A stretch of DNA of 64,000 bases from Catajapyx aquilonaris. Lineage: Eukaryota. A program made the position numbers and the translations under genes. Shown here in pieces: positions 1,881-31,950 of the stretch. The first letter of the stretch is position 1. Each line of letters opens with the position of its first letter. Under the pieces are notes generated by a model. The model had not been told where the DNA came from. It was given only the letters and a program-made list of their open reading frames with translations, and did no database searches. The stretch lies in NCBI GenBank assembly GCA_000934665.2, contig KZ537988.1, positions 1 to 64,000 of the forward strand, given 5' to 3'.

Positions 1881-1955
1881 CTTACATCCCCAAGCACCAC
1901 TGGCTCTATGCAGATATAGCGAGCGCTTACCTGTAAAGGAAGAAACAATAGGTTT
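1881..1955 (-). other. Candidate recursive splice site (ratchet point) at junction 1931/1930 with a 45-50 nt cryptic RS-exon
   Basis: Minus strand reads CCTATTGTTTCTTCCTTTACAG|GTAAGC, a 3' splice site abutting a consensus 5' splice site. Downstream donors are GAT|GTAAGG (GT at 1885, 45-nt exon) and AAG|GTAGGC (GT at 1880, 50-nt exon). Confidence 0.65.
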
Positions 1956-4900
1956 TAAAAACATGTACAAACACCGGGTAACGACCTATAAATTATGACT
2001 TCATAACAAAATGAGCCGTAATGAAAAGTGTATCCAACTAATTTGCAACCATCAACAGCATAAATTGCCCTGCAAATATTTGCTCCAAAATCAATTTGCG
2101 CCGTTAAGTACCTTTTAATTGCGCAAGCTACATTTATATCCCCTGCATATCTACGCTGGAGGCTTCTCCATAACCCTTCCTCGCATAATTCTATTCCCAG
2201 CCATCGGCAAGCGCAATAATAACAACTTTTCTCTTCGCAAAAAAAAGTCCCGGACCATTATCTTTGCCGAGAGTGCCAATGAGGAACATGCGAATCCCCT
2301 CCCCCCCCCCCCCTCAAAAAAAGGGGAAATGTTCGTCTGTCGGTGCATGCAGTCAAAAGCGAGAGAGACCCCCCCTTTTCCATGGCACAAACAACTTTTA
2401 TTCCTCCTCTTCCCCCATCTTAGACCCGGGCGAAATGAAGAAAGAGACTCCCGGAGCCCCGGAAAAATGGTCACGGTTGTGAAGAGAGGCTTGGGAAATG
2501 GACTATTACTGATAGCATAAACCTGGCAACAGATACTCCACGGGCTAGTAAAGGGTCCCGTTTACGGTCGCTACATGGCAATAAAGACAAGGGCAAATTG
2601 TCATAAAATTAATAGGAAAATTGTCCGGGTCGAGATTTACGGGCGACATGGCCGTAGTCAAAAAGTGACGGCGGGGCTGACAACCTTCCGGACTTGCCAC
2701 ACCCTTTTTTGGGGAGAGGGGCGTTGCATTTTCTTGCTTCCTCTTCCGTCTATCTGCAGGCTACAAAATAGCAGTTTGTACTCGCACGAGATGCTTGCAC
2801 GATATACTGGCTCCCCGGAATAGGAATGTTGTTTAACAGTGGTCAAAGTTGTTCAGGACCAAATGCGTGAATTCTATAAATTCTTTCCAAGAGCAGAAAC
2901 AATATAAGGGTAAAATTTGTCGCATATCTGCATATGGCAAATCATTTTTACATACAGACTAAGAACAACGGAATTGGAACTTGTGTCACAATGTCAACGA
3001 TAACACTATAACAATCCTGCACTTTAAAGTAGTGACGTCAGTACCTATGTTACATGGTCGTGCCTGCATGTATAATACTGTACATGACTAGTGACAGAAT
3101 CAGTCTGTTGGATGTCACCCGATGCAGGTGTGAACTCCAGGTGTCAGTGAGTCACGCATGAAGCTCTTTCATGGATGTGGAAATATTCAACGATCATATT
3201 GCAAAATACTGCATAAAATTATGTCGCTGTTATTATTGTTGTCGTTATGACCCTCCCACAAACAAAACTGTAATCAACTTCAGCTGCTATATCCTAATTC
3301 CCACAACAAATGTAAACATTTAACTGAAATATCAAATTATCCATTGATTATATATTTATTCGCAAAATTCTGCTGATGCTATAACACACTCGTGAATGAT
3401 TAAACGGATTACAACACATTTGACGATCATTTGGCAATACAAGCATGCTTCTCTTCAAAGCTTCCCTTATCAATGTGTACCGTATGCCCTGCGAGTGTTA
3501 GGCCTATAAGGAGTTTCATATTATAAATACTTCCATTATTGCTAATTATCTGCCAACAACAAGACATGATCCGAGTGGAGAATGACCAAATGTCGGGGTG
3601 TCGCGCTTCACACCCTCGCTTGTCACTTCATCCTGACAGATAGGCAAATTCTATTGGGTCGCATACCCGCCAGGATGAACGACAAAGTTGACTTCCTAGA
3701 ACCGAGTAGCCAATCGGACGACTCCTCCTTCCCCTCCCGCTGCTCGTTATGAATTTTAAAAAAGCGGTGCAAACGCATGTGGTCCCACAGTTGGCACGAG
3801 GATTGCCCCCTTTTTTAATGGTTGGTGCGGTGAGGGGGGGTGGGAAGGCTTGCAAAGTGACCCCAGGCAGAAATGATCACCAAACCCCATCTTAATGGCT
3901 GCCTCCTGCCCTTTTCCGAATAAACTGCGGCACATTAGAAGCGCGCTGAATTAACTGCGCTTTCCTCCACTGGGACACGTCGCAGCGGCAATGAAGATAA
4001 AAACCATCAAGCCTCGGCAACCGGATCATTACGATTATGTTTATGATTCCTGCTGGTGTGCGACAGGTGGAGCCCTGGCAGCACACCATTGCAGTTTCGC
4101 CCACTCTCCCCATTCCGGCAAAGATGGCGTTACCGGCCACCCGTATAAACTCGGCTTCATTAATTAGTGCGATGCAATCGCCCAATCAGGACCAGAGTGT
4201 GCTAATGCACTGTCATATCTCACGCTCTTACAATAAGCAAGCTAATAGTTAAACCAATTTCCATCCTGTTCCAGAGTTACAAATAAACAGTACAAATCCA
4301 CCTTTATGTCTCTTCCAACAATGCTCACAGGTGCCTAAAATGACCGGTTTCAAATAAATAATATTGCAAGTAACACTTTACGTACAGTAATTCAGAGCGT
4401 ATCTTATGGTTTGTTTGATCCACTACTTATTCGTGTAATTTTATTGCCAGAAGTTCTTAATTATTGAGATTAACTTCAAAACACTTGAACATGTCGCCAC
4501 GATTAGGAGAGGGGGACCTTTCAAATCACTGACATGGCTAATTGGTTTATTGTTATTAGGTTAAGTTTTCTCCTCGATTCCGAGTACAATTATTAACCGC
4601 GGAACATTACTTTGTGTCTAGCTGTCAACCCAAGCAATTTTTGTCAAAAACATATATATGTCTCAGTATGGGAAGGTTATTTTGCTGGTATCGAGGCCTT
4701 GCTGGATGTGCAATGTATTAAATTTCGGAAACCTTACCTTGAACAACACATTTGCATTGTTTTGTAAATACGCGAATCCTGTGTTCATCAGTTTGAGCAA
4801 AAAACGTACACAAATAGAAGAAAGTTATTAAATGAGCTGAAAAAGAAATATCGCCAAAGCATTGGGTGCAATTTAAGCGGAAAAACAATATTTAAAGGCC

Positions 4901-5008
4901 ACTCAGAATTATTTGAGGGGTATTTTTAATCTGCCAGCACAAATTTATCGGCAGTGAATAATGCCAGCGAATTAACCAACATTCACATCATTAGTCCTTG
5001 TAATGTCG

Positions 5009-5030
5009 CTTTTTTCACATGTGAAAAAAG
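5009..5030. repeat. 22-bp perfect palindrome CTTTTTTCACATGTGAAAAAAG
   Basis: Self-reverse-complementary, centred on the E-box CACATGTG, inside the AT-rich block of about 4250-5700. Confidence 0.85.
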
Positions 5031-8000
5031 AGACACCGACAAATATGGACATGAGTCACATGACATTTCCCGCATTCTAGGGCGGTTCAAGGACTGACCT
5101 TAAATGTCAGAATGTAAAAGAACAGAGTGATTTTTAAAACGTGAAATGCCAATTGATGTTGGACAGGAGGGTGCATTATATAGTCATGAAAAAAGGGCTG
5201 ATCATTTATTTACTGTTGAGCCATAGCTCTTTCAAAGGTGATGGTTATTTTAAAATAAAAACTCTACAAAACATTTCGAAACTTTTCTCATTTTGAAATT
5301 CTAAATTAACTCCATTCCTGCAGAACCAGAATTTCTACAAGTTGGCTCAGTGACTCAATTCCTGGAAATTTTCTTCTTCTTCATATGAGTCAACAGTTTT
5401 TAATATTAGAAAAACATCGTATTCCTTGAATGTATTATTTTGTTACCTGGGGAAAAATTCAACTCCAAACTTGCAGTACTTGTTTCATGTGTGGCAACAC
5501 GTGAAAACCTCTCAAATAAATTAACTTAACATCAAGCGAGCACAATGCCCGTTTTGATGATCCTCACGTGAAATGTTATTATAATTTAAAAAGTATCATC
5601 CTTATGATTTTTATCCGAAAATTAACAGCTGCCAATCCTAGCGTCAATCAGCGACTACAAAAATTTCAGCAAAAATTCACCCCAGTTGGTCACAACCCCG
5701 CGCACCCCTGACACCCTGTTATTCATTACCAGTTATTAACATCAACAATACGTCGACTTTGACGTCGCCAGAGTCTACCAGAGTGCGCCTCTCCATTACT
5801 GGCGCCACAGTAAATTGTACATTTCTCTGAGACATGGCCCCCTATTTTTGGGAGGGTAGAACGGAGGACAGTTGGTATGGAGAAAGGGTGGGTGGGTTGG
5901 GGGGGTCGAAATAGCACAGCGGCGATGTGCCCTATTGGGTCGTTTGGCAGGCTGCATGCGACCTCTTTTTTCTCTCTATTTCTCTCTTTCTTTACCATCC
6001 CCCCTTTTCCTATCCAGAGGCGGAGAAAAGAGGCGAGAGAGATGCCTTCCTGTTGGTCCCCAAAGCCCTTCCCTGTCCATTTCCCGAGCTGGGGCGCCAT
6101 CCTCCCGTCCCCAAGTCCCAAACTGAAAAAATCGAAAATTGGATCCCTGTTTCTTCATTTTATTCCCGTTTCAATTCCATTCCTCTTCCGGAGGGGGGGT
6201 CGGGGGAGAGAGTGAGGCAAGAGGAGGTGGGGGCTGCAAAAGTAGGGGCTGTGTTATGGTAGGGGGGGTTCCATGGCGCGAAAGGGAGTTGGGTCGAGTC
6301 CCCAACGCGCCGTAACTATTTGACATGGCGGATGAAGACGTCACAGTATTAGTGGTTTACGGTCCGTGCGGGACCTTTCGGCTTCCGCAAGTCCGCACAC
6401 AGCCCCAGCATCCTATTACCCAAGTTCATCGGCGCACAAATCAAGTAGGCAGCAGGCCCCCCCTCTCTACCTTACCACCTTTTTCAGCCGACCTCCCCTT
6501 TACTAGAGCCATTCCCCATCCCAACGGAGACACCGGGGCCTTCGCTACTTACACCTTCCGAGCCCGTGGGAAATGCCCTCCGGTATCGATACACTCCCCA
6601 ACTTTTCGGGGGTCCTGCAGCATACCGGTACATGCTTTAAGTTTAAATGAATCGATTTGCTGCTCATGATGTTCTGGTCAATTAATGGGAATGAGCTGCC
6701 ATATTGCGCGTGTGGAGAATTTTCCCCTCTGTAATTATGTTACGATAATATTAATAAACCGATTCGGAATGATTACGCAAACACGACCCGGTATTATACA
6801 CAATATTGGTGCAAGCGTGTATAGCGAAATTCAGAGCCCTTTCCAAACTTCTAATCTCCTGGCAATAATTATCAATTATGCAAAGCACATTGTCAGCTGG
6901 AGTAAAAATAACAGGCCATTGAGGGACTATGAACGCAAAACTTGTTAAAATCGTCGAGAGATGGTTGACTTTTCCCACGGTTTCGCTGGTAAAACCGGTT
7001 GCTAGGCGTGGTTGGAGGCCGGGGGGGACCGCAGACTGCCATTTTCGGGCTGACAATGAGAAATGACGCAAGCACGAAAATTATCCCCACGTGCGACTAG
7101 TGCATCTGGAAATAATTCAATACCCCCTCTATTGTGTAATGGATTGCGGCCTGCATACTCTACCCTCTTTCACAACCCTCTAGCCTCGAGTTGACTCCAG
7201 CCAAGTGCACAATTCAGACCCGCTGCGGACAGAGTGCACCACGCACCTCTCAAAAAGCGGTTAAAAAAAAAAGAAATGCGAAAAAAAAGCAACAGGTTCC
7301 ATGGGAGGCTTACTTAGCCCCAACCTGTCCTTCCCTTTCTCCCGCACCAAGCTCATCATCTCATTTCATTAGCGGCAAGGCCCGATCTTCTTCCAATTCT
7401 TTACTGTCAGCCACCGACTAAGAAATATCTCCCCAATGACAACGATTAATGAGGAAAAGCATATCCAGGAAGGGCCTCGGGTTACAAACACGCCGGCTAC
7501 ATTACTCGCCTTATGTCCCAGCCATCTTCGCCTTTCTGACCTATCTCAACGAGGCTTTCAAGTTCTACGATTCTTGTCTAACCACTAGGAATACTGTCCA
7601 GAGGCTCCACCACGAAAAAGCACCCTTCACACTTCATAAGGAGCAGAAGCTGAGATGCACTATTTTTCCAGTTGCTTATTCAGATAGTTATGGTCATTGC
7701 ACCAACGCCCTCCATATATTCCTTCCCTGAAGAAAAAAAGAAAGAAAAAATGTGTTGCACCGTAACAGATATGGATGATTACCAAGTTCCCAGCCTGAAA
7801 CACCTAACGTTGCACACCTGCTCGCATACATTCACACAGTCATAAAACTCTCATCGGGAGACTAATTCCAATGGCCGACATGGGAGTAAAAGACGCGTGC
7901 ATTTGATGCTCGGTCTTAAGGCAGCTCTTCTTTATTTGCGTCAGAGGCGGATGAATTAACAACGTCGCCCATTCCAAGCCCGACTCTAATGAGAAGTGGA

Positions 8001-11000
8001 GCAGGCATGCGACTTCTACAATGTCTTCTTGCCAGACGTCTTCAGGTGAGAGAAGGTGTCGGTGGGAGGAAACGCAGTGGGGGAGGATAGTTTTCTTCTT
8101 CCTTCGGGGCCCGGGGCCGGCCTTCAAACGGCTGGCTTTTGGCCGGTGCCAGCGTCACACTGGCCCGTGAATAATTCATAAAGCCCGCGCCTAATCCAAG
8201 AAGGAGTTGGTGCCTTCAAATGAATTTTAATTGGCCCCGTAACGCAAAGCGGATTCCCTGCAGGAAAGTGGGGGATTATGCTAATGTATTGGAGTCATTA
8301 GCCGGCGATATTAAAGGATAATATAGCATTTATCTTGGTCGGAATATTGCGGGGCAAGAGACGCGTGACTTGTTCCCAGGCGTCCCTCCAGAGTGCGCGC
8401 TAAGGAGGCAAGATGGCGGACAGTTGTGAAAGGCGGGATTCCTGGAATGTCCGTCCGCTTGCTGGAGAATCCAAAAGTCCTCAACATCCGAAATAAGAGG
8501 CGGGGGGAGGGGCGGGGGAGTTTGAATTCCTGGTGGAGGGGACGCCTCCCAAGTTAGAATGAGTAATGACCGCGGCTGGCGGCAAGTCGCATTCTGGAAA
8601 TCCTTGCATTAATTAAGAGCGTAAGTGGGCAGCCCAATTCCGGGCCGGGCGAAACCTTTCCGCTGCACTTTGTCCACCTCCCTGTCCTGCCCCTTGGCAA
8701 TTAGGGAAAGCATTCGCTGTAATTACGAGGCTCGCAGCCTCCTTCAGCACCGCCTATTAAACCACCGGGAGACACGCTAACTTATCTGGCCGGCCTGGCT
8801 ATCACAACGGCCTGCTCCCGACGCTATATTATCTAAAGGGACCTTGCAAGCAACCCCATCTGCAAGTGATAAGGACTCGGCTGCACACGCAGGGAGGAGG
8901 AGGAGAAGAAGATGCCGCTGCTAAAACGCACTATCTTTTCATCCCGAGGCCGCCACCCGTGCCGCCCCGCTTGCTCCCAAATGACTCCTTCCGACAGCCT
9001 GGGCACCACTGTCCGTTCGACATGGATGACGTCGCCAAGTGGCACAATCGCAAACGGTGCCAGCCGGTTAATTAAACTACTTTTATTAGGAGCGAACCCG
9101 TTCCTTCTATCAGCCATCAGCATGAATTTTACGACCTCACTTCACACCTGGTAATTTACCATTTGCATTGCCACTCAATTATAAAATTGCGCTTTAATCC
9201 GCAATACAGGACTGTATATCTTCAACCCAGAAAACCCTGCTCCTCGAGCATGAGGTGGGTAATAATGTGTCATTAGGCTCATTGAGAGCTGCACATGCAA
9301 GGGGGCATGATAATGGCATGTTTGCCTTTCGTCCTGGAGGCCTGCGTGAAGCCGCCTCATTAGTTTTTGCATCAATGAGCCCCTGCTTTGTAATGATAGG
9401 CAGGTCTGAAGCGCCATGGGCTTCCTTCCTCCTTCGACACAATGGAACAAATAAACAAGCGCCTCCATTGCATGCGACTACAGGCCTTACCCGTCGGTTC
9501 CGGGAATGCAAGTGGCCGCCACTATACCCACCAACTTGCCAATCTTGAGTAAGAAATCAACCTAGCAATCGACGCACGCCAATTTTTCTCCTGCCCCGCA
9601 ACCGCTATAAAACGAAACTCATTTCCTGTCCCCCCTCTCAACATACACCCAAATTACAAGTGAAGACACGATACATAAAAAAAAAACGTGGGGGGGCTTC
9701 CTCACTATCAAGAGCCAGGCAGTAAAGCCTGGTGAATAGTTAACGAGCTGCTTGTTAGTGCCATCAAAACGGGTAAATCAAGGATCGGGGGGGCTTTGAT
9801 TTAAACTTAAATGAGTCCGCTGAATTTTTAATTAGGTTTCTCCTGGAGCAGGGGAACCTGTTTTTTCCCTCCCATTCCCTAACACCCCTACGCCCGGCTT
9901 ATGATGAGCCTCTAATCAACGGTGGTACGGGTTTCATTTTCTGCCTCCTCGCAGCGGATTCCCATAATGCAATGCTCGTTTGTCCTCGACGTGAAAGCAC
10001 GTCCATCTGGCAGCTTCGAGTTTTCATACGTTCAGGCTTCAACACCGCCACACCCGCTCACTTAAAATTTTTCCCCAAAAAAATGGCCAGTATCGACAAT
10101 CGCGCCCCGGTAAATTCATACTGCGATCTACAATACAATGGACAAACAGCATTTTGAAGTTTATTTCATTCTCAGTGCGCCCTCGGACCTGAGGGGGAAA
10201 AAAGGGCCACCTTTTCCTTGTAGCAGAGCCTCCTCTCTTCTCCTCCTCGTTTTGCCACCGCTGTCTCCTGAAGCGAATAGAGCTGTGCATTATTTAGCGG
10301 TGGCGGGTCCTCGCCCCTGCATGAAATGTCACCGAAGGGGCTTGCTCCGCGTTAAAGATTGATGGCCCAGAACCCCCTCAGCAACGCTTCCCCGAGGCGG
10401 CCACGGGGAACACTGCAACACTTGGATCTATCTCTATGTGCCTCGTGTCTTCCACATTGTTCCATTTGGACGCCCGTCCTCGCCCTCACTCCCCCACCTC
10501 GTACCACCACCCCCAACACATCGATTCTAGGGACGTATAGCGCCCCTCGCCCAATTATACCAGCCGCTTTCACACACCAGGTCGCTATCAAATTTGTTGG
10601 AATTGAATTTAAAGATTAAACGCGTGATGTGAAGTGAGTTTACAAGGTGCTGAAATAATATATAAAATTACCTGGAAGCATGGCCCTCCAGTTCAAGAAA
10701 CCATGCTTAATTTCTGTAGCGCAACGGTAGAGTAAGCTGAACCAGAATTGAAACAACCTGGATAATGAAAAATAGTGCAGGATAATTTCTGAACAATCAA
10801 ATTATCCTGCTGAAACAATGTTTTTAATGTGAAATGCAATTGCAAGAATTCGTATATTTTACTCCTAAAATTATTTGGCAGTGGGGAAATTGGCTTAAAT
10901 CCACTGCAATTAGCATGCTCCAATACGCGTATAATCCCATGTATATTTATTTTTGGAACAAAATCCTCCGGATTTGGTTGCATGATCCAGGCGAATTGGC

Positions 11001-16049: not shown

Positions 16050-16075
16050 AGCGCCCCCTGGTTCCAAAGACTGCC
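16050..16075 (-). promoter_or_regulatory. CTCF-like motif
   Basis: Minus strand GGCAGTCTTTGGAACCAGGGGGCGCT matches the CTCF core CCA(C/G)(C/T)AG(G/A)(G/T)GGCGC except at its 5' end, with an upstream GCAGT. Confidence 0.4.
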
Positions 16076-17474
16076 TCTGAATATCTCGCCGAAATTACCC
16101 CCATTCAAATTAATTCAATGGGCTAGCCAACGCGAAAGTTGCCCCAACTCCAGCAGTCTGCAATATAAGGCCTAACGAGCTTTTGGAGTTCCTCTGAATG
16201 CCCCATTAAGTCCATAGAAACGCGAAATGACCACATGGGATCACCTCCCAGAACGGGAAGGGAGGTTTTGGGGGAGGAGAGGATATGAGGGTGGGGGAGG
16301 AAGGGAGGGCCAAGGGGGCAAGCAGAAAAGTCATACTCTACTATTACACAATGGAAGACTAAATAATGCACAATGCAGCCATACTGGAGTGCGAGCCCGA
16401 GACGCTAGGCGCCCGGGCCCCAACAATAATTCATTTTTCAATCGTGACAACCCTGGGAGGTGATAGAATAATGGTGCACAATGCCTGCATTCACGCCGGA
16501 CACATAAGGACCTTTCAAAGGCCGCTTGCCTGCAGGATACAGAGCCTGCCTTTGGGTAAATATGCGCACGCCTTTCCGCCAGGACAATTCTCGGCCTCCC
16601 GAGGTTCATATTTTCCTAGTTTTACGGCGGATGGGCTTCCCAAGACAGCTTAGAACAACGGCAAAAATGCCGCAATGGCAATCGGGTTGCCTCGCACAAC
16701 AAAGACCCGCTCGCACACACATTGTCACGCGGTTCCACCCACACACGGCTGCGTCACAGGCGTTCGAGCGAGGATATATTCCGTAATCTGTGTCTTGTCA
16801 TCTGCGACTGTAATTTACGCTGCTGGTAATACTGTACACGCCTGTTGGTCATTTTACGCTTGGCTCAAAAGATGTCATTTCATCCGTCCTGGCACTGCCT
16901 TAGACACCGTCTCATATGGAATGACTGATGTGTGTTTTCATGAAATCCTGCCAGTGCTTCTCAAATTGACACACATCCAACAATCACCCATGATAAAAAT
17001 ATTTTGACAAAAATGCACAGCGAGTGCTGCTTATTTAGCAATACTTCTCAAAGATTGTTAAAATCAAACTGCAGCAGTAAACCTGCCCACATCGTGTAAA
17101 ATTCTACTTTCGTTGTTGCAAAAAGCAATACAAGGTTGGAACAGCAACATTTTAATTTTTGTATATCCTGCTATCATAAAATAAAACTAGGTAATATTCC
17201 AACGTGAGGAATACTATACATGCACTCGTATAATGTCACCTACTTCTGCCTCTCATTCGTGTGCGAAGTGCTGCAGTACGTACAGTGCATTGCAGAGCAC
17301 AGCGAGCGTTTCTCGCATAAGTGCATTGGGTGTCCGGTAAAGTTTCCTAGAATTTGCACAGCCACACGACTCTTGCTACCAAACTACGATCTAGTCTCTG
17401 AAACGTTAATGTTCACTGCAAGCTACATCGTCGTAACTTTCCACACAACAATCCACTGGCAAAACCATGACATT

Positions 17475-17939
17475 AGGCGTATTCGGCAATTCAGATTATT
17501 CTGAGACGCGTCACGTGATATCTGAGTTGTTAGCCCTGCCCCTCAGAAGATTATTGCCGAACGGCCGAACTGAGAGACCCCCCCTACCCGCCAGTGCTGC
17601 ATCCCAGTGATATGCCAATGTTCGGGTATTTCGGTGCCGTATTTCGGACGCTGGCGGGTAATGGTGCGGGTAAATTGAAAATGCGGGTAAAATCGGGTAT
17701 TTTCAGGTCCTCGCGCGGGTTTTTTGGGCATTTTGCATTGGCAACACTGCTGCATCAATAACATGAATTTGTTGTCCGCCTGTTTCTCAGCAAGTAAGTC
17801 AGGTCAGGAGTACACTAAGTTCCTGAGCTTGGGAAGTCAGGTAGGGCGCATGCGCACTTACTTCAGGGGGCGTGGCACCTGATTTGCCGAACATCCAAAC
17901 AGCCCAGGAAGTCAGATTCCTGAATTGCCGAATACGCCT
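17475..17939. mobile_element. Non-autonomous DNA transposon (MITE), 465 bp; PIF/Harbinger-group-like (ATT TSD) or Tc1/mariner-like (TA TSD)
   Basis: Perfect TIR AGGCGTATTCGGCAATTCAG (17475-17494) matches CTGAATTGCCGAATACGCCT (17920-17939). ATT flanks both sides (17472-17474, 17940-17942); TA flanking a TIR starting GGCG fits equally. Internal repeats of TTGCCGAA and CGGGTA; no transposase ORF. Confidence 0.85.
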
Positions 17940-20900
17940 ATTGTTTTCGCCCTTCACTTGAAAACAATACTAACTTATTTAATTATTGCCTTTTCCACGA
18001 AGAGTGGGATGTTACAATGTAATAATAGAGTAATTCAGTAACTTTAAAGGTGCTATGACATGCTGTCTACCGTACACGTTCTCATTCTTATGCACAATAT
18101 TTGCACGATTCTGAAACGATGGCAACATTAGGCCAACGCCACTACCTCCCATTTTCCCCACAGACTGTACGTTGGTTTAATTTTTCATTTCCATCAAAAT
18201 ATGAAAAATTCGGATGAAAAATACTTCTGATTCTTCCGTCGTGATTCTTGGCCAAGAAAATTAAACAAATTTTGCTCTTAATTGGGATTTTTCTGTCATT
18301 TTTTGTAACCCAATGGGTGTACTTTTGTATACAAAAATTGGTCAGTATGAAAAATTTTAAACACTTACACGAAAAGGGTTAGTTCTCTATTTTAATGTAA
18401 CCAGCTAACGTGGGAGGGGTGGGGAGGAGACGGAGATAATGAACTTGAAGCAAAGGCATAAATTATCCTGGTAGGTATGCATCCCTCAGCGTGAGTCCCT
18501 TTCACTGTGTATTTTGAATCTAATTGTTGCCGTACTGTACAATTATTACCAAACGCTATGCATTGTTCTCGCTATGATGCGAGATCATTACCCATTGAAG
18601 AAGTTAACCGCATGTAGTCTGGTTCCACTATGTTGTGAGCTCCCCTTTGCCTCTATTCAACTCTGTCAAACTCTGCTCTGGGTAAATCTGCTTACTGAAG
18701 GTGTTTATAAAATATGTACGGACACTAACCCAAACATATTTGTTGTTCCAGTAGGGCTAACTTCTCATGCACACTCGAAAAGGGAACCTGCCCAAAACTT
18801 GGTAAGCATTTCATCCGCTCTAACAATTTGACAATAGCCTCGTCCCCTGATTTGCTGTCCGAAATGTTGTGTCTCCCCTTCTAAATCGGCTTCCTCTTCC
18901 AACACTTGCTTTTCAGACAGCATTTCATTCACCTCTAAATGTGCCACAGCCCATGCAACTATCATGGTTTGGAGGTTGGATTCGCTCTGCATCCAGCATT
19001 CAGTAGGGCCCTAGTCCCTTTTCACCTGAGGGCTGAGCGCTTTTAGAAGCATTTATGTCACTTGCTCCCATTGCGACCATCAAAAAATGTGACTCAAAAA
19101 CACCTGAATATGGCACAGAGTGCAATGCATGCTTAGCTCGTAATTGGCTTATAAAATGCGTCGAGTTTTTCAATTCTGAATTAACAATGCTCGAGCAATA
19201 TTGTAATTTTGCATGTTATTATTTGTTGGGCGCAATCTCTGTGGCTAAGACGGAGTTACTAACCAAAAACCAAGCATCAGACTTTGTGTGTGTAGTATTG
19301 ATAAACATTTCCCTCCATTCACCCTATAGTTTCTGTTCGATTGCAACAAGGTTGGCACTTCGTATTATACAGCCAAAGCTCGGTTATATAATTTGAAAAT
19401 CAAAACTGTGTTAACCCTCGATTTTTGTTTTAAAAAAAGTTGCGCCTTTGATCACAAAAACAGTGTTAAAATCCCGTCCGCGCCATACTAGTAGAAATAT
19501 GCACCGGGCAGCTTGTTTAAGCGTCGCTCCAACAACAACAAAAAAATCTAATCCTGTGATCATCCGTTGAGTGACGGCACCACAAATCCTTCCAGTGATG
19601 TATACCTCACAAGTACACTCTATCCTCATCATTCGCCCGATACTGCATGATCCACTAGCACCGCCTCGATAGTGACAGCGTGACAGACAGGAAGGGTGCC
19701 TACAGTAAACACCTTTTCCACCGCCCCCAAAAAATCACGCCACCNCCCCCCCCCCCCCCGATAGAAACCTAACCTAAACTCAATCCATGATTTCTGGCCA
19801 TTCCTCCCTCTAGGGAGCCCGGATCTAGTCGCAGGATCACGTTTCCTAGGCCGGATCCGTACTATCTGCCGGAGCCGCCATCTATCGCGGGGGCGCTACC
19901 ATAATGCACCCGGGCGCGCAGCTGGCGTGTCTTCCCTAAATCAAATCCCGATAAAACCCGGCATGTACTCGCATCTGAGATCTGCTGCATGCCGGAGGCT
20001 GCTCCCAGCCGCCATCTTCCTCTGCCTTCCCCCTCCTCCCAAACCTAACCTCCCCTAGAAAAGCACAAGCTGGGATGATGCATGGCCCAAAACTTGGTCC
20101 CCGGCCGGCAATCCTGATGCGCCTCCTCCAAGACTCCTCAATATTGCAGCCTTAATATTGGGCTCTATAAATTTCCTCCTCCTCCCCCCACCCACCCGCC
20201 CTCCTGGGTTGGATTGGCCTCTCCTCGGGGCTGCCTAGGCCCTAATGGCCCACTACCAGCCCGGATGCACTTAACTACCTGGCCCACGTGACAGTATACT
20301 ATAAGCCTGGCCTTCATTCCTCCGTACTAAAGCATTGTTGCAAAACCCTGGCCCCGGCACTCCGAAATTGGCAATTTTTTCGCCCCTCTAAAAGTGACCA
20401 CGCCTTGATGATCCAGATACCCAGGTATTTTATATGCCCACAGGAAGCCCCCCGTACCTGAACTCTCATTTTGTGTTAATGGTTGATTATGATCGCGCCG
20501 TCCGCTTGTTGAATGTACGGTAGCGCAAAACTGCCCTTATCTCCTTATTTTTACACCTCAACAAATCATGGTTTGAAGTGAATTTAAAAGGTGGGCGAGG
20601 CTTGCTTTTTGTTTTGGTACGGAGGAAAAGAGGAGGTGGCCAGCTTAAATTGATCATCCTGTACCTTTCCCTTTACTTTGGAGGAGGTTTGATCAAGTTC
20701 GCTCTCCATAAAACATGAATCACTTTTGTGGGGATGGAAGTTTCAACAGTGTTGGGTTTATTCGCCGACACACTATTTACTTCGGCGTGAACCACTCGAG
20801 TACATGGCTTCCAGCTAATTCCAGTCCAGTCATATTCCCTCAGCACAAGGGGAACACCCTCACCCCACTCTATTTCATTTTTGCACTCGCCCCCCTTCCC

Positions 20901-23900
20901 CCACATTTTTTTTTTTTTTCCTCTTCCTCGGGTGCCATTATTCAGCTGGGGGTGGGGAATGATTCATTGATTCCCCATTTCCAGCTGATGTTTCTCTGCC
21001 GCGCTGTTTATAAAAGACACAAGCCGTTTCCCATTCACTTAGTGAAATCCTCGTTTTTCAGCTACACGTCCCTGCAGGGCTCCTCTCCCTCCGGAATGGT
21101 GGAAAAACGGTCCATCGAGGGTGGGGGTGGGGATATCGTACGATAGCCGCTGCAGCAAGCAAGCATCGCCAATGACACCGGCAACCAAAAAGCCAAAATC
21201 CGGCACGCGCGGCACATACTTTCAATTTGCACGCGGGCGCAGCTCGAAGAATAATTACGATGGGCAAAAACCGGGCCCCGGGCCTACTTTCGCAATGCCC
21301 GCGCATAAAAGTTGTGGTAGGGACATGGAGAGGGGGAGGGGGAGGGGGGGGGGGTTGAAAAAGCTATGTATGCACGCGTGTATATTACCATGATTACATA
21401 TAATTATTAATCATATTACCACCCCACTGCACTGACCATAAATTTTCATTGCATTTTAAACGAGGGGATGTGTTTGTGATAAAGAATCATCAACTGCAAC
21501 AGTTGAGCTCGCCACATTCGGACCGTCCGGCTTAATAAAACAAAACTTCCAAATCCGACTCTGGCATACAATGTCCTCTATCGGAATTTATCCCCGTTAA
21601 CCTACCAGCATTTCCCATCTTCACAAAATGTGACCGCTGGTTACATATTTTGTGTTTTTAATGATTTTCCAGTGGGTATGATCTGACAATTCGGACCAAA
21701 CATGGCGAAATTGACCCAAAATGGCCGCCCCCACAATCAGTCGCCTGCTCTTTAAACTATTTAATTTCCTCTTCACAGTCCAGATCGAGGAAGCTCCATT
21801 TTTGCATATAGGGTGTTATTACTTGTTCCCCCCTCTCGTCTTGGTGGACCCTCTTTTTTGGTAAGAAAAACTTGGTCCAAGTGCACATCTCTCCCTTTCC
21901 TCCCCTCTCTCCGGCAAAAAGCGAGCAAAGATTTCAATTTAGATCCCTCCTCGTGGCGCGTCTGTTTCTCTATAGGCCTGAAATCGCCCTCCTCCCCCGC
22001 ACTTCCCTCCCTCTCCCTCCTCCTCCCCCCACCACCGCACACACCACCCCTGCAAACCGTCAAAACGGGCCTTCGAGCACGGGCACTGTCAGTCGCCTCG
22101 GGGCCATGTCCGTGATGAAGAATGGAATGTAATTAGCCCTGCCTATAGCCAGCGAGCACGGGGCTAATAACATTTTATGCAACCTGGCCCGGCCCGACGT
22201 TCCGACAGGGTTCCGTCGAAATATAGATTGCCACGCCACAATATGATACCGGCCAACCGGCCTGGATCTGACACGCGCGCCCCGTCTGCCTACAACGTGT
22301 GAAAACCTCCCGTGTCTATTATGGGCTACAAATTAATGCACTCCCTATATGTACGTGGAGGAGGTGAGGGGGAGGCATAGGCCTATGCCGACCCCCACCT
22401 GGTTTTTTTTCCCAACCTCCCAATAGCTGTCATACGAACCAAGATTCTGCCTATCGAACCACCTCTCTGCAACATACCCTGATTGTAATTACGCTGCGTT
22501 GTGTATATCCTCATGTGGAAGAATATTGTTGACACCCTTACCTTTGAGCCATATTTTCAACAGGCGGAAATATCAAAAAATCGCCCAACGTGAAATGTGC
22601 TAAATTCAAACCAACAGGTCTCATGCACCTGCTTTACAAAATAACAATGTCTACTCTCTAAATTCATATCAGCGGGTTTTCACTCTTGCCCCTTTTGAGT
22701 AAATATGTTCTCCCACCGTAATTTTAACTAAAATATTTCATCAAACAGACAAGTTTAAAGACACACACCAAACTATTTGGAGCTATTTCAAGTTACATAA
22801 CAAAAGGAAGCCGTATTATTATTCGTCTGGCGTATTCTTATTTCCCCTCACACAGTGCCCAACCTCGTTTGCAGCAATGTGCCAATTTGTAATATGACAT
22901 GGCTTGTACCTCCATACTTAGCCCGGCTATATAATTTCAGGTTGTAAAACACGCCTCAGAACGTGACTTTCTCGGTCATCTCGCAATGACATCTGCAACT
23001 TAGGCCCTAAAACGCAAAACAATGCCCACACGTCGCTTATTCCAACAGCGCCGCTTGTTTCACATTGTCCTCTTCATCTCAACACGCCTTTTGCCGGGGG
23101 AAGGGGATGATAGAATAGGCGACGATCATCTGAATGAAAGACTCATTCGGTTAGCCGTGGATAAAATCTGAAGTGGCGTGGATAGGGGCCTCCCAAAAAG
23201 GAGATATTTCCATCCATCCCGCTTCTGGCATCTGCAATCTGATTTTGTCATCCGCGTTCCATTGTTTGATGGTCGCCCCAGACAACAGGGCATAAATATG
23301 CAAATGTGTCACACGTTACACCTGAACAGTGCGGCCTCGGATTTATTACCACTGTCTCCCCCCTCAATTCCTGTCATCATAAGAGAGGGTGGGGGTAGGG
23401 GGGGAAGCTTTTGCGGATTCCCAGCCGGAGACAAATGATTTATTTCGCTCGCACTGTTATGTGGAACATGCTGATTTCCCCCTACGCGTGTTGCTCCTTT
23501 GTTACCACATTAGCCTATGCTTGATGCCATGTAATCTCCACATACTGGGCAGAAGACACTTTGCACTTCGCCGCCATAAATCAAAAAGCGTCCCCCCTTA
23601 GGTTACTGCAGCTGATAAAAATGCACTCCCAGATATGGTGACACGGCCTCGTTATCGCCCAAACCTCCTCCAAAAATGTCCTCCTGAGCCACATTCACCC
23701 GAATAAAGTTGTAGCCAGAGCCCGGCCCCAATAAGCCAGAAGCCCTGCAACAATAAAATGACAAGAGAAACACGGCGCTATTTCCACCTAGCACGCATGT
23801 TACCCCCACCCTTGGCCCCCCTCTCCCCACCCCCGGCCAGCACCAGCCCCTTGGCGTGACTTGTCACTATCTTTATGGGTGGATGTGGGTTGCAATGGTG

Positions 23901-26900
23901 GAGATGTCAATCGGAAGGCTTGTATTTTACCCGGGGACATCGGAGAAGCAACTGGGCTTGAGATAAAATGCTGCTGGGGAACGAATGATTTAGGCCGTGG
24001 GGGTCCCCTCCGGCCTGGGTTCAAAGGCCAATATCCAAACCTCATGTATTGGTGAGAGGGTGGAAGGGGGTTGGGTGGAAGTGACCTGAATTCCCCATCC
24101 CAACTGGAGAACCGTTAGTTACATTGTCGACTAGTGTGTTAACGTCGGCATATACGTGAGGTGTAAATCTCTTTTGTTGCGCATTCACCTCCCGTGGAAG
24201 AATAAATCTGCACTTCCTCAGCTTCGGAGATTTTGGTCACTCAGTGACTTCCTTTCGCAGCCGGAGCTGTAAATCTTGCGGGCCCGCGATACCATCGGAA
24301 CAAGTCTCCTGTGTCTCACAAAGGGCAATTACGATACGTCACCCTCCGCTGATAATTAATTGGCGACATGTTAAGAATAATGCAGGATGATGTTCGCCGA
24401 AAATCTTCAGGCAGTGGTCCCAACAGCAGCCTGCATGTTATGACCCCCAGGTTATAAACTAGTCCATTGAACCAGACACCATGCATGCAGCAGGACCGCC
24501 GGTATTTTTGGCTAAGAAATAATGAAAAGGACCTGCGCTCCATTCCACGCACTGAGACCAGAAAAGGGCCTGCAATTTATTCGTGGGCATGTCGGTGACG
24601 TTGTGTATGGTCATCGTTTTCGGGGGAGGGGTAGAAAGGTATGAAACCCGCCGACATTCCCCCGCCTTTATTTTTGGTGATTTAGATTGGGAGGGGCCAG
24701 AAGTTGGTCACGGAAGGGTGAAGAAGAGACGGTCTATTACCCCTTTCGATATTTCCTGGGGCCGGCTGGTTTTCAAAAGGCCCTTTGTGAACAGCGGAAT
24801 TTAGTACCGGGGACCTAAGGTCGCTTTTGCACAAGCCTGCCACAAGCCAACTATAATCACACAGCTATAGCTTCCTGACGTTACTGCCCTCCCCTCCCCT
24901 CTCACAAATGGTTTCCTGCCTCGAATAAAATAGCAATAAACTGCCCCACAATTAAAAATATTTTCAGACCTGCTTTCAAGGTATCCCAAACGAACCGAGT
25001 CGCATCAGGAGCAGACCTGTTATTATTGTCGTCAGTATGTGCGTGGTGACTTGTGCTAACCCAGAGGGGTGTGGAAACCAGCAAAACTGCTCTCCCTAGC
25101 TCAGGCTCCTTGGGTTCCCCAATTGGAGGGGGGCGCCTGCATGGCATAGCAAAGCCGACCTCAAGAATTACGGTGCCGCGGCTGCAATGTGCTGCGCCGG
25201 AGAAATGGGAGAGCGGGTGACACAAGGCATGATCTATGTCTCAATATTGCAGCCAGGAATTTATTGAGGCATGCTACGCTTCTGGGGCCCGAGTGATAAG
25301 AAATCCTTCTCTCTCTCCCTCTCTCTCCCTTTTCCTTCTCCACTTTTCCCACCTTTTCCCCATCACTGGCCAAACAAACCGCTTCAAATATGTTCAACTA
25401 ATGAGTTTACAATTAAGTAGATCTATTCTAGCTCCCGCAACAGGCTCTAGGTTCCAATCCATTACACGCATGGTGCTTCTTCACTTTGGGATAAACTATC
25501 TGGCTGCTGCATCTGCTCGTTATTTCCCTTGAAAAGTTCCCCGGGCTGTATTCAAGAGGCCATCAGGACAGGATGCCGTTGTACACGCGCTCGCAAATTA
25601 ACCCAGCCCGCCCCATTAAAACTACCGTTTGCCCATGGACACGGCCAAGAAAAAGACCTTGTCTGTCTTTTACACTGGTCCTGAATGACGGCGCCAGCAT
25701 CCTTCTCTTTTTTTTGACATAAAAATTGGCCCGATTTAAACTGACCACCCTGCTAAACCATGACACACGCATCAACGATCCTGATATCACTTTCACCTTC
25801 CAACACATTCACATCCATTATCATAATCTCAGCTTGATCCATATCGGAATTATCCCCTTTTTTCGGAGGATTTTGCGTGATTGGCACGTGTTCATTTCTA
25901 GGGGTCGTCCAATCGAGTCATCGGGGCAGGAAGTTGGCAGCACTGATCGCACATTGGACCGTGCCGACGTATGATGCAAGTCGGCAGCATTGTTCCTAAT
26001 CAATGTCTCGATCGCACCTGAACATACTCGACGGAAACATCCATTACCGTCGCAGTACAATTGAACTAAATAAGGTCTCGCGGCAGGGGAGCGGATGCAC
26101 TTCCTACAAAACACTTACCCCCAACGCGCAACTGCCAGCCGCATATTTTTCACCGCAATTTACAGGTTTGAAATATCAACTTACGAGTGGCTTTTCCAAC
26201 CCACCAGACACATGGTGATTAGGCCAAAAACCAGTAGCGGCTAATTAACCGCGCAAAAAAATTAAGACAATGCCAGATAAGCTATCATTTTCAGTCGCCA
26301 CATTACTCACGACTGACTTCTCCTGCACTGCCTTCTATAATAGCCCAGGTAATAGGACTTCAAGATGGTCATGTAATGCAATAAGTCTTCCTCCGCCTGC
26401 AGCACAGTAACCCATTTTAGGGAAGAATAATTTACGATAACGCAATGGTCGTACAAAGTGTAATTATTTTCCCTCCCTCAGCCTCCCTGGACCATGTCCA
26501 GCCACCTTGCCTCCCCCCCCAAAAGATTTAAGTCTCCCTCCCCTTTTTGGGGAGTGTCCTGGACGATGCAAAACACACACTCCCATGGTTTCGTGAAGGG
26601 CTGGACGAGGCGCGCGAAATGGCCGGCCCGAAATGAGTTTCTTCATGTGAGCGCGTGTTTGGCAACGGCGGACCCTTTTCCCTCTCTCTCCCTTGTGAGT
26701 CCGTGATTAGGACCTATTATACCCCTCCCGAGCTGCACTTGGCTGCCGGCAAATAGGCCATGAATGAGGAGAACCCCGCCGGGCAGGTGCAAAGGACAAG
26801 GGGAATAAAGTTTCCAAGTCCGGAAGGAGCCTTTTTGCAGCTTGCAAATCTCGGCCCCCATGAAGCCCTTTCCGGAGGATTCTCTTTTACTTTGTTTCCA

Positions 26901-28120
26901 CCCTGGGTAGACTTGTCCGAAAACTGACTGTCCTGTACGTGTCCGGAAGTGCGCAAGACAACGGTGTTGTTATTTTGCGGCCAGGCCTTTTGGGGGAAGG
27001 CATGCTACATGCATCTGACATTTTGCAAAGTGCGCTGACTTCTGCCCGGAAGGGATGTAAAGAAATATATTTTTTTAAATTCTGGAAAATGCTGACCATG
27101 GATGTCATCCTGAAGCTACAAAAAAAAGGGCAGCAAACGAATCATATTAGCGTATCTAATGCAAATGACGGCTACTGTGCATATTGGCGCCTTTTCATTT
27201 TTTACCCCATCGTATTGTGCACCTCCGCCGGCGTTGTTCCAAAAAGGTGGTTAGAGTCGATTTGGTGAAATTAGATTTTAATGAATATAAAACTGGGCGA
27301 TTATTAGCCAAAAAATCCGGAGCCGTGGTGGAAAAGCGGGGAACAATCGAGCGCACCATACTTAAACTCCAGGCGATTAATTCCAGTGGGGTGGGGTGGA
27401 AAAGAGATGGGTGTGGGGGGGGGGGGGTCGGTGCGATGGATGGGAAAGGCTGGCTTGCCAATGGCAACCGCAAAAACCTTTACACAAACTCAAGTTTCTC
27501 CTACCGGAAATTGCTGCACTTCCTCCACCCCACCCTACCCTCCACAAATCGCTAATTTGAGTCCCAAAAATTGAGCGCCTGTTAATAATGTTGCGGACGA
27601 CACCGAATAAATTACTGTGCCCCAGAAATATGTTGGGTCCGAGAAGTGGTTGAAAAAAAAATGGAGGACCATAAAACTCGGGTTCCCTCTGGCGGAGGAG
27701 GTGAAAGCAGGGGGGGAACCCCCTGTCTTGTGCAGGCAAGGCGCCATAAAGCTGGCGCCCTCATCAGCCGCCATAATGACGACATTACGCCGACCCAGTG
27801 AGCCGGTTTACGAGCGCCAAAGAGGCGTATTCCCCCGACAGTCGAATCCGAATTTGATAGCCCATTTTACTGCCAACGGGCTTGCTCTCAGCGACCAATG
27901 TCAGGGTACTTGTTGAGGAGCTGGCAAGCTGCGGAGGAGGAGACGAGATGGTGGTGAGGGGGGGTGAAAGAGAAGGGGGTGCAAGCCCCATGTTCTTCTC
28001 CTCTAGAAGAAAAAAATTGTCGCTTTTGCATGTCTCGCTGCAGTGTAAGATGCCTCTTGAGAAGTTCTCTCCCCCCTGAATTTTCCTCATACTTTATACC
28101 AAGTTCCACCAAACAACACT

Positions 28121-28176
28121 AAGTTAATCCGCTTAATGCAAACTCGCTTAATGCGAACTTCTTGGCTTAATAGGAA
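28121..28176. repeat. 15-bp tandem repeat CGCTTAATGC(A/G)AACT x2 plus a degenerate third copy; possible terminal relic of a pogo/Tigger-type MITE
   Basis: Copies at 28130-28144 and 28145-28159, degenerate GGCTTAATAGGAA at 28164-28176. The repeat is seen directly. The transposon origin is inferred from resemblance to short subterminal repeats of pogo/Tigger MITEs; no partner TIR was found. Confidence 0.45.
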
Positions 28177-31100
28177 GAGGCGTTCTAAACTCCATTACTA
28201 CAGGCTTAGAAGCGATAATTTTTGCTGCTAGCACCCTTTTCCCCGAAAATTTTGCTCGTCATGCCACTCCATTTGGCAGCTTCAGAAACTCTAACCTGGT
28301 TAGATCAGGCGCTCTAATTCTAATATGGAGTAATGTATCAACCCCGGCGGCACGTAAATCGGTAAAAGAATCCCGGAATCATTTTGTCTGGAGATTCCAT
28401 CAAGGCAGATGTCCCGAGTCATGCGGCAGAAATAGTGAAGAGGGTCCTAAAAGCCCCCAAAACACTTTTTTACGGCCTCGTCATGGCAGGGGGGCCATGA
28501 AAGGACCAGCCCCATTACAAGGTTCAGTTTCAGGGAAGATCCTGTCCGTGGGCCTGTCCGTGTAGATGCCCAATGGTCATCTTTACTGGTGACCCCATCG
28601 GACATGCAAGGATTTACAAGACGAGCGATGGTAAACCCCCACGCCTCTGCCATCAACGTCGGGGCGTCGTAAAAGGGAGAGAGCCCTCCTGGAGAGTCGC
28701 CCTTTGCCAAAATACCTGCAGGTCCACGTGCATCCGTGCCTCAAATCGCTGCTATTATTTGCATCTTCATTTGCCTTCTCCTGGCATAAACCTGCCAACC
28801 AACTTTTTCGGATTGACGTTAAGTGCCCACCTTTCGGTTACACTTGACTTAAGTAGGCCTTAAACGTCGCCGTTTAACTCGCACCTGCCACCTGCGAAAC
28901 CTTCCATTGCCACGTGGTACTATCGCTTTTTTTTATCCATATTATTCTTACCCAAATTTCGGTCCCGTAATCAATGGCTACAAGCACCCATCTCGTAAGC
29001 GTGAGGTTGCTCGATAGGTGGCAGGCGCCGCAAGAGCCCTCTTCGACGTCCCTTCCCCGTCAATCCCCCCTTCTCTCCCCGCCATTCACCCCGTCGCAAG
29101 ATGGCCAAAAATGCCACTGACACAATCCCTCCCTCCCTCATTCTTCCCCCCTTTCTTGAAGCAAAAAAAAAAATAAAGAAACTGGCAAGTGGAGCCCTCA
29201 ACTGGCCCCAGAAAATCCTTGTTTCCGCCATTGCCTAGCCAAAATCCTCCTTTTTATATCCGACTCGGCGTCGTTTTGCTAATGATTCCATTGAGTGCAC
29301 ATAAATCGGCGGGTTTATTTGGCAAAAGTGACAGACTATGACCACAAGACCCGGCCATATTCCCCCCTCAACCGCCGCAGAAAACTGGTAGTAAAATGGG
29401 GGCTGTAATTTTGGAGTCCTCGCAAATTTTCTGTTGGACGTGAGGGTAGGGAGGTGGTGGCTGGGAGGGGAGGACTGGGGGGCAGCAACAGGTTAGTGTC
29501 TTGTGGCTTCTATGCCCTTGCCAAGGGGGAGCACACTTTGACAGGGGGGCACTCTCTGTCACTTCCACGGCCAACAGGACAGCTCTTAATCCTCTCCAAC
29601 CGCACAAGTGGCCTATAGCCCGACAAAGATACTCACGTCGAGTCGTCGTTCCCTTTCCGTTCTGTTATTAATACGCACTCATTTCACAACAATCGACACA
29701 CATGTCTCCTACTGTTGGCTACCAGCACAAACAAGCCGATATCGACCATGACGTCATTCCAGAATAAAAATGGCCCCCAGTTGCATAACAAGGCATGGTA
29801 TTCCCCCTCTCGCCCCTGCAAAATCCATTCCCCAGCACTTCCCGAAGATGGTATGGCCCGTATTATCTGGCTGACCAGTGGACGCAAATGTAATGCTCAG
29901 TTCGCAATTAGTGTGCCTTGCAGCAGCCCCCACCCTGGTCCGGAAATTTTCCCCAGTGACATCCTCAGTTGCAGGCAATTTTCAGTTACACTTTATCCAC
30001 TGGCAGTGGCTCCATCCTGCGGCGGGACTAATCTCGGGGCTGGAAAACGAGCCCGAAGCCGCAACGGTAAGAGGTCAGTTGTGATGCTAACTACACCGCA
30101 TCAGTTTCATTCGCCATTTTGGCAAAAAGAGGCATGGAAGTAGGGGGTAGGAAGGGGGGGGGGGTTCCTAATGGTTTGGGAGAGCGTTGAAAAAGGGGAG
30201 GTAGACTCCCCTCTCAAGGCTTGCTGAAATCGGCCTCATTTCTTGGCGTGTCCACGCCTTGACCGCCGCCCACTTCTCCCCTCCAGTTTCAGGGCAATTA
30301 ATTCTTGGAATGGCTGAGCGCATGTCCGCTATTAGCCGGCCACCAATGATGTACTTGGCTGCAGCTGGGCCAGGCCCGGATATGAAGGTAGTTGTAAACC
30401 TCTCCTTCTCAACACCCCCCACCCACCCACCCAGGCGCCACCATCCCCTCCCAAATCTGGGTATACTGCCCTTTTGCCTGGTGATGAGCCTTTTCCCGCA
30501 CTATCAATCCCCATTTGGTGGGATCCCTCCGAAAAAAAATCACGATGGATGAGACGCAACGTCCAGGCAGTCGGAAGTCTGCCAAATTGCTGCCATTTTC
30601 TCTTCGTTTCCACGTGACACTGCGTCCACTGCGTGACTTGGAGCTCTTTTTCGCAACAAAATGTGTGCCCGCTGCATCTCAGCAGCCCAAATAACTGCAC
30701 AGCATCTGGTTAGCACCAATTCACGGGGTTTGTAACTGCTCGACGGGGTCGTCATCTGCACTCGTAAAACCGGAGCCCTCGGACTTTTCCGTGTTGGGGA
30801 AATATATAGGAACTGGAGGGGGTGGGGTGGGGGGTCAGGAGCGGGGGTGTTTATGCAGGGGACCACCAAGGGGAAGATTGCCACTGCCCTTGGCCAATTG
30901 GACTGTTTAGGACACTTGGCGCCCACTTTTTGCGCTCATCAGATTTTTGGTGCTGGGAAATATGCTGTCTAAGGTCAATATTAGCGGGCCGGTGTCGCCA
31001 TTGGCGCAACACATACATGCAAATGATTTTGGCTGAAGTCACCCTAGGGCCTTTTTCTCTTCTCTAATACCGACCCGCTCTTTTTTTTTCGCCCTGCCCA

Positions 31101-31863
31101 ATTCTATCTTTTCGGATCCCTCATGATTACTCCACTAATTAGTATGCATGCCACCGCTGGCAACACACGCACTTTTTTCCCTCCCCACCAACCACATGAG
31201 TTGCGTATTTCCCCCCATTCCCATCTACCCACCCTCCTTCCTCCGGACAGAACATGGCACATAGGCGGTTGGTGGCTATGATGGGGGTGCACACATACAT
31301 AATCTGCGGGGGGAAGCCATATCCCTCCAGCTGTGGTACCGAGCACCAGGATATATTAAATCATACACATAGCCAGGCTTACAAACTAATTGCCCCGGGA
31401 TGAGCACCTCCAAAAAAAAATACCCCGGCATATAGCTAGATTGTCCGGCGCTCCAGCAGCAGCCTCCCGCCCGTATCAAGGCGTTTTATCAGTAACTGGA
31501 GAAGCCGAGTCTCCTCCATAATCCGCCCTGCTCTCTCTGCAAGGTTCCAACTCACACAACAAGCATCTCATTAAGCACTCCTCGTCTGATTCGGTGGTAA
31601 TTTATGCCCCCCGCCTTCACGAGACTGCACTGCGCTGCCTGCCGCCTCTTGCCAATGTTGCCGCCTAGGTCTTATGAGAGAGCCAGAAAGCCTTCCACCT
31701 CTGGCAACAAGGGTCCCGTTTTTACGCTTAATCTTGCCATTCTCTTCGCTCCTCAAAAAGCATAAGCGTAACGCTTTAGTGCCCGCTGAAGAATGTGTGT
31801 ATTCGCACTATTCGTGCTAAATGCGCGCACCCCCTTCGACAATAAAGTATCACATTATAGTAC

Positions 31864-31950
31864 CTTATCCTGATGGTGGTCACGAGGGACACGTGATGAA
31901 TAGAGTGTCGGGCTTACCTGGAAAGACAAAAGGATCATTATTAGACTTAT
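31864..31950 (-). other. Candidate recursive splice site (ratchet point) at junction 31918/31917 with a 54-nt cryptic RS-exon
   Basis: Minus strand reads AAGTCTAATAATGATCCTTTTGTCTTTCCAG|GTAAGC: branch-like CTAAT, pyrimidine tract, CAG and a consensus donor. Downstream donor AAG|GTACTA (GT at 31863). Confidence 0.68.

Follow-up and report, generated by a model that had tools for sequence, protein, structure and literature searches.

The 64,000-nucleotide window analysed here (contig KZ537988.1 of Catajapyx aquilonaris, positions 1 to 64,000) looks like eukaryotic non-coding DNA throughout and carries on its minus strand two sites, A and B, at which a splice-acceptor signal directly abuts a splice-donor signal. 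The junctions, counted at the first G of the donor GT, lie at 31917 (site A) and 1930 (site B), 29,987 bp apart. The window holds exactly two copies of the octamer CAGGTAAG (1926-1933 and 31913-31920). Both belong to the minus strand, and each extends to CAGGTAAGC, which reads there as CAG/GTAAGC, the slash marking the junction. Such an arrangement resembles the ratchet points of Drosophila, where long introns are removed in steps. We tentatively read at least one of the two sites as a genuine, if putative, recursive splice site of a long minus-strand intron, a reading that we place slightly below an even chance.

Read along the minus strand, the acceptor half of site A ends in CTAATAATGATCCTTTTGTCTTTCCAG and its donor half opens with GTAAGCCC, and the corresponding halves of site B are CCTATTGTTTCTTCCTTTACAG and GTAAGCGC; the core at issue in both is CTTTNCAG/GTAAGC. 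Pyrimidines occupy 13 of the 16 positions from -20 to -5 at site A and 14 of 16 at site B, and a TTT at -5 to -7 places TT at -5/-6 in both. Each GTAAGC donor scores 7.2 on the heuristic scale described below, and that of site A belongs to the six best donors of the minus strand. An earlier sequence-only reading of this DNA had singled out two minus-strand octamers extending to CAG/GTAAGC, each behind a good pyrimidine tract and with junctions 29,987 bp apart; our recount returned the same positions and spacing, and the pyrimidine counts bear out its description of the tracts. The coordinates of the sites and of the features predicted around them are collected in Table 1.

Table 1. Candidate recursive splice sites and associated features in the window.
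Feature	Coordinates	Strand	Details
Site A, acceptor half	31918-31944	minus	tract 31934-31920; CAG 31920-31918; TT 31922-31923
Site A, CTAAT branch-point-like motif	31944-31940	minus	branch A 31941, at -24
Site A, predicted regenerated donor GTAAGC	31912-31917	minus	score 7.2
Putative cryptic exon A	31858-31917	minus	54 nucleotides (31917-31864), then weak donor GTACTA 31863-31858
Site B, acceptor half	1931-1952	minus	tract 1952-1934; CAG 1933-1931; TT 1935-1936
Site B, predicted regenerated donor GTAAGC	1925-1930	minus	score 7.2
Putative cryptic exon B, version 1	1930-1886	minus	45 nucleotides; donor GTAAGG 1885-1880
Putative cryptic exon B, version 2	1930-1881	minus	50 nucleotides; donor GTAGGC 1880-1875
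Non-coding stretch with uniform strand asymmetry	1-64000	minus	putative long intron or run of introns

Every AG/GT on both strands was scored as a log-odds sum over the pyrimidines at -20 to -5, acceptor positions -4/-3 and donor positions +3 to +6, using a matrix of approximate metazoan splice-site frequencies that is heuristic, not MaxEntScan. Among the 424 AG/GT sites scored (185 on the plus strand and 239 on the minus strand), the two sites rank first and second, with scores of 13.1 and 11.3, and the next score is 7.8, on the plus strand. That third-ranked site, at 34923 (+) and reading TTTTTTTTTTCAG/GTGTGA, is the best of its strand and has a weak donor. A shorter tract window leaves the ranking unchanged. 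With the tract window extended to -25, the two highest minus-strand scores, which are not tied to particular sites, are 10.2 and 7.2, the plus strand reaches 7.7 and one reversed control reaches 8.6. At the -20 window, reversed, non-complemented control sequences peak at 4.7 and 6.9.

The foremost alternative is chance: two good composite motifs would have arisen in non-coding DNA and would never be used, the window being intergenic, transcribed from the plus strand, or intronic with its sites ignored. We regard this as a distinct possibility, and the null models bear on it in both directions. Strand-specific Markov models of order 1, 3 and 5 predict 0.02, 0.07 and 0.09 sites per window scoring at least 11.3, and in 200 simulations per order not one run held two or more of them; neither the plus strand nor the reversed sequences offer anything above 7.9 at the -20 tract window. 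A more conservative, empirical null, in which real acceptor halves at all AG are paired with real donor halves at all GT and low-complexity tracts are kept, raises the expectation to 0.093 (plus) and 0.140 (minus), in all 0.233 sites, with a Poisson probability of two or more of 0.023; for the minus strand alone, a hand calculation gives P ~0.009. Pyrimidine-rich stretches are common enough to ease a chance origin, with 16-mers holding at least 13 pyrimidines at 3.9% of minus-strand positions (3.9-5.1% of positions overall), and an outcome with a probability of 0.023 will recur when many windows are screened.

Motif counts that combine the two halves point away from chance. YAG/GTRAG occurs six times in the window (four plus, two minus), and only sites A and B combine it with at least 13 of 16 pyrimidines. 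The core TTNCAGGTRAG, derived from the fly ratchet points of 10.1101/006163, has two matches, sites A and B, where 0.24 are expected and 4 of 100 shuffles reach two. The string CTTTNCAGGTAAGC, with 13 specified bases, is common to both sites; allowing at most one mismatch, 0.06 occurrences are expected and none of 100 shuffles reaches two. Taken as one window, this DNA carries the composite motif well beyond what chance would supply. What is informative is the composite score, the strand skew described below and the TT rule at -5/-6, while octamer counts carry nothing.

No coding signal was detected in any part of the window. Five open reading frames beginning with ATG, GTG or TTG reach at least 150 amino acids, stop-to-stop frame lengths are near geometric on both strands, and a search across the window for a period-3 signal found none (mean signal-to-noise 1.01, maximum 3.8). 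Pfam searches covered 300 of the 340 open frames of at least 70 amino acids, taken as the 150 longest and the next 150; the 150 longest gave no match, and the next 150 gave two marginal ones, DUF5490 (below its cutoff) and DUF4074. Searches of the window for Rfam families and for transfer RNAs returned none. Since the window is without detectable coding sequence, it could lie within a very long intron. Its G+C content is ~48% and its CpG observed/expected ratio is 0.77; this ratio, together with the lack of interspersed repeats, is unlike a typical jawed-vertebrate intron.

Strand composition is asymmetric over the whole window. GC skew averages -0.098 and is negative in all 32 of the 2-kb bins, 26 of which have a positive AT skew; the minus strand therefore has G in excess of C and T in excess of A. 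Removing G/C runs of at least 4 leaves a GC skew of ~-0.085. The combination of G over C and T over A is the sense-strand pattern of vertebrate introns in the available text of Polak et al. 2010 (PMC2927911), and the rule that assigns it to the sense strand rests on vertebrate data. A transcription unit of minus sense that extends across the window would agree with the skew, with the missing coding signal and with the strand on which both sites lie. That the two sites share a strand, and that it is the one favoured by the skew, speaks against their being chance occurrences, as does the presence of TT at -5/-6 in both.

Donors downstream of the sites were scored with the same heuristic matrix, percentages being the minus-strand positions with an equally good donor at comparable distance. 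Site B is followed by GAT/GTAAGG at +45 (score 2.9) and AAG/GTAGGC at +50 (score 4.4), donors equalled at 0.8-2.3% of positions in the same distance range, which counts against chance; paired with the +50 donor, site B is the second-best conventional exon candidate of the minus strand. Site A is followed by AAG/GTACTA at +54, and its best donor between +40 and +60 scores -0.7, a value equalled at 17% of positions. The proposal of the sequence-only reading that each site precedes a further donor 45-54 nucleotides downstream therefore stands for site B, but the site A donor is of a quality found at many positions. At both sites the regenerated donor (7.2) beats the downstream one.

Branch-point motifs show the opposite distribution. 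Site A has a CTAAT that places the branch A at -24; a CTRAY with its branch A at -45 to -18 is present for 7.5% of minus-strand positions. A search of the 60 nucleotides upstream of site B for YTRAY found none, the background for YTRAY at -45 to -18 being 17.6% of positions. Animal branch points are degenerate. Each site thus has one accessory feature present and one missing: a branch point with a weak donor at site A, and donors with no branch-point motif at site B.

These downstream donors raise a second alternative, that the sites are real splice sites of short exons that are sometimes kept in the mRNA. They would be either expressed recursive microexons like mI and mII of Ubx or else cassette or poison exons 45-54 nucleotides long. 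The 54-nucleotide segment at site A and the 45-nucleotide segment at site B (first donor) are both multiples of three and open in frame 0, and site B with its +50 donor makes a good conventional exon candidate. Expressed recursive splice (RS) exons of Ubx are known that are 51 nucleotides long and start with GTAAG (10.1101/006163; PMC8605326, available text). At A and B alike, however, the donor of the ratchet junction outscores those downstream, so skipping would be favoured; the site A donor is weak, and neither a period-3 signal nor homology accompanies the segments. A frame-keeping length with an open frame at both sites has a chance probability of ~3% on a rough estimate, and the choice of donor is flexible as well. 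We consider retained short exons quite unlikely.

A third alternative, that a repeated element holding CTTTNCAGGTAAGC was copied to both sites, would account for their 13 common specified bases and is effectively refuted by flank alignment and repeat search. MAFFT found no alignment between the 300 nucleotides around each site and did not even bring the motifs into register, and the window contains no direct or inverted repeat of at least 40 nucleotides. We therefore take the two sites to have no common element behind them and to occur independently, and a match over 13 specified bases with no homology in the flanks is also awkward for a chance origin. Scanning metagenome contigs with the 24-nucleotide cores of both sites gave no match for either, in a collection unlikely to hold relatives.

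Returning to recursive splicing, sites A and B would act as ratchet points within a very long intron of a minus-sense transcription unit. The spliceosome would take each site first as an acceptor, using the pyrimidine tract with TT at -5/-6 and the following CAG, and acceptor recognition would be promoted by a cryptic exon of ~45-54 nucleotides bounded by the weaker downstream donor. Joining of the upstream exon to G 31917 would rebuild a strong donor, exon/GTAAGC, which would outcompete the weak downstream donor and allow the next segment to be removed. Were the stretch between the sites free of exons, that segment would be 29,987 bp long and end at acceptor 1931, and the cycle would repeat from 1930.

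Earlier studies of Drosophila ratchet points are reportedly those of Hatton 1998 and Burnette 2005. Like sites A and B, Drosophila ratchet points have acceptor and donor juxtaposed at AG/GT, a prominent pyrimidine tract, TT at -5/-6 and a GTAAG donor stronger than the one ~50 nucleotides downstream, and they lie in a long, coding-free setting at comparable spacing. Both sites read as a pyrimidine tract followed by CAG/GTAAGC and hold ranks 1 and 2 of 424. TT at -5/-6, present at A and B, characterises 196 of 197 ratchet points of the fly vs 43.8% of all fly introns (Duff preprint 10.1101/006163). Fly recursive segments average 18 kb and range over 2.6-63.6 kb (10.1101/006163), and a step of 29,987 bp is ordinary because it falls inside this range. 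Fly recursive lariats have branch points at -36 to -21 (10.1101/006163); the site A motif at -24 lies within these limits, whereas site B has no YTRAY in 60 nucleotides. For skipped cryptic RS exons of ~50 nucleotides, the rule given in the available text of Joseph & Lai 2021 (PMC8605326) is that, of the two donors, the one downstream is weaker than that of the ratchet; a putative cryptic exon with a weaker donor of its own is present at site B, and the corresponding donor of site A is weak (-0.7).

The differences from the fly concern both sequence and context. The consensus at +6 is T in Drosophila and C at sites A and B; site A is without a convincing cryptic-exon donor and site B without a canonical branch point. 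Fly ratchet points lie on the sense strand of introns longer than ~11 kb, and here the skew fits minus sense and no exon was found. Ratchet points in Drosophila are recognised by reads joining an exon to the ratchet, by saw-tooth coverage of the intron, by lariats from and to the site and by strong conservation of the AG/GT core in related species; those proposed here are candidates by sequence motif. The acceptor-donor anatomy that the sequence-only reading had likened to ratchet points does match the published ones, and the TT at -5/-6 and the stronger ratchet donor extend the likeness.

RS exons of vertebrates, said to have been described in long neuronal genes by Sibley 2015 and Blazquez 2018, also present an acceptor followed by a reconstituted donor and a short exon with a competing downstream donor. 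Their inclusion breaks the frame or adds a stop; the 54- and 45-nucleotide versions here would keep the frame.

Evidence of the same kind underlies the motif-based predictions of Shepard, McCreary & Fedorov 2009, whose available text reports that the large introns of four animals, sea urchin, mosquito, bee and beetle, are enriched in the motif (PMC2773006). The large-intron densities given there per 100 kb are 0.48 in bee, 0.54 in sea urchin, 0.81 in beetle, 1.03 in mosquito and 2.2 in fly (Table 2, as available), and those on the complementary strand are 0.07-0.12 in all species except mosquito, at 0. The window, with two sites per 64 kb, reaches ~3.1 per 100 kb for its minus strand against 0 for the plus strand, measured with a matrix and cut-off that differ from those of PMC2773006; our null models predict 0.05-0.2 per 100 kb per strand, comparable in order of magnitude with the published background. 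In locust, a site in a 230-kb intron of NPF1 was predicted with U2AF65-binding support, according to the available text of PMC8892266. Our sites share with these predictions a motif match in a large non-coding interval and enrichment on one strand; the 2009 survey and the locust study differ in resting on annotated introns, hundreds of them in the survey, and on U2AF65 data in locust, while here there are two sites known by motif.

In the literature outside flies and vertebrates we found no RNA demonstration of ratchet points, locust being the only partly experimental case. Recursive splicing and amphioxus are mentioned together sparsely in the text available, with a single mention per paper. 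The suggestion of the sequence-only reading that a cephalochordate or other non-model invertebrate host would make this recursive splicing in a possibly undocumented lineage was overstated, enrichment of the motif in invertebrates having been published in 2009 (PMC2773006, available text).

How far the two sites favour recursive splicing can be put in rough numbers. At the invertebrate large-intron densities, the probability of meeting two sense-strand sites within 64 kb is ~0.04-0.24; under the conservative null it is ~0.009 for two sites on the strand predicted by the skew. The likelihood ratio is therefore roughly 4-27. It is raised modestly, again as a rough judgement, by the TT rule and the site B donors, and lowered by the weak site A donor and the missing site B branch point.

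Several points weigh on the other side. The bare octamer count, from which the sequence-only reading had started when it stressed that there were only two, is at chance level: 1.81 copies are expected, and 56 of 100 dinucleotide-preserving shuffles give at least two. The composite P values are post hoc, because the matrix, which is approximate, mirrors the criteria of that same reading, and the strictest of them, ~0.02, holds for one window chosen from many screened. A non-coding animal window taken at random has a low prior of being a recursively spliced intron, and this one was selected from many. We identified in the window no promoter, no host gene and no exon on either side of the sites, so an intron is something that we infer; the lack of an exon or gene also speaks for a chance origin. 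The GC skew of the window (~0.10) exceeds the values below 0.06 given for gene bodies of primates and rodents in the available text of PMC2927911, and it could come from replication instead of transcription. The accessory features are mixed, with a weak donor at site A and no branch-point motif at site B, which suits a chance origin. Of fly introns exceeding the smallest recursive one in length, the first survey found only 6% to be recursive (10.1101/006163); the available text of a later one puts recursive sites in 63% of introns longer than 40 kb (Pai et al. 2018, PMC6110457). Large introns of vertebrates have no motif enrichment over the complementary strand in the available text of PMC2773006.

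Set against the likelihood ratio, these points leave recursive splicing plausible but unproven. The analysis shows how the motifs are built, that they exceed chance in this window, that the two copies are independent and that coding signal is lacking; minus-strand transcription of the window, placement of both sites in one intron and use of either site are inferred. The stronger form of the proposal, in which zero-length ratchet points of the fly type, with TT at -5/-6, CAG/GTAAG and a short cryptic exon, are constitutively active within a long intron of an animal that is neither a fly nor a vertebrate, appears unlikely.

Should the sites be used, they would add one more long intron removed stepwise, in what is probably a non-model animal, and would lend weight to the prediction, made from motifs in 2009, that recursive splicing is a common feature of large invertebrate introns. 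If the fly-type ratchet reading were true, stepwise intron removal of that kind would be old and widespread in animals. The mechanism is textbook knowledge in flies and vertebrates, and the gain would therefore be one of phylogenetic breadth, not of a new principle.

Elsewhere in the window, the best conventional exon candidate lies at 40797-40957 (-), is 161 nucleotides long and open in one frame, and combines an acceptor scoring 7.9 with the donor AAG/GTGAGT, which at 8.4 is the strongest of the window; it has no Pfam family and no homolog. A stop-free frame of 293 amino acids at 695-1573 (+), longer than expected by chance (~0.03 expected by our own estimate), is rich in proline and low-complexity sequence at its ends and is separated from site B, which is on the other strand, by ~350 bp. 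Pfam gave no family for it and a word-indexed search no homolog, and an exhaustive search gave one marginal, uninformative match (E 9.1e-4) to a repetitive protein of 539 amino acids without a family above cutoff.

The marginal DUF4074 match, at 33971-34195 (+), scores 24.6 bits over a cutoff of 22.3 across 18 residues, and no stretch of it passes alone. DUF4074 is a C-terminal motif of Hox3. No homolog of this frame was found among longer proteins and no homeobox in the scanned frames, and for these reasons we treat the match as probably spurious.

Some 70 short patches, in which C (38 patches) or G (32 patches) makes up 18 or more of 30 bases, occur at about one per 900 bp. Several G-rich and C-rich patches form nearby inverted pairs that could fold into stems; example pairs are 1426-1452/1599-1625, 27386-27400/27524-27538 and 35099-35113/35292-35306, and further patches lie at 21311-21368 and 49190-49232. 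A 25-nucleotide inverted repeat at 17470-17494 and 17920-17944, 96% complementary and with 425 nucleotides between its arms, may be a small foldback or the two ends of an element resembling a miniature inverted-repeat transposable element (MITE). The assembly itself has left marks, comprising a gap of 14 Ns, single Ns and a run of 40 A bases with an N, at 52246-52259, 54558-54597, 19745 and 63123.

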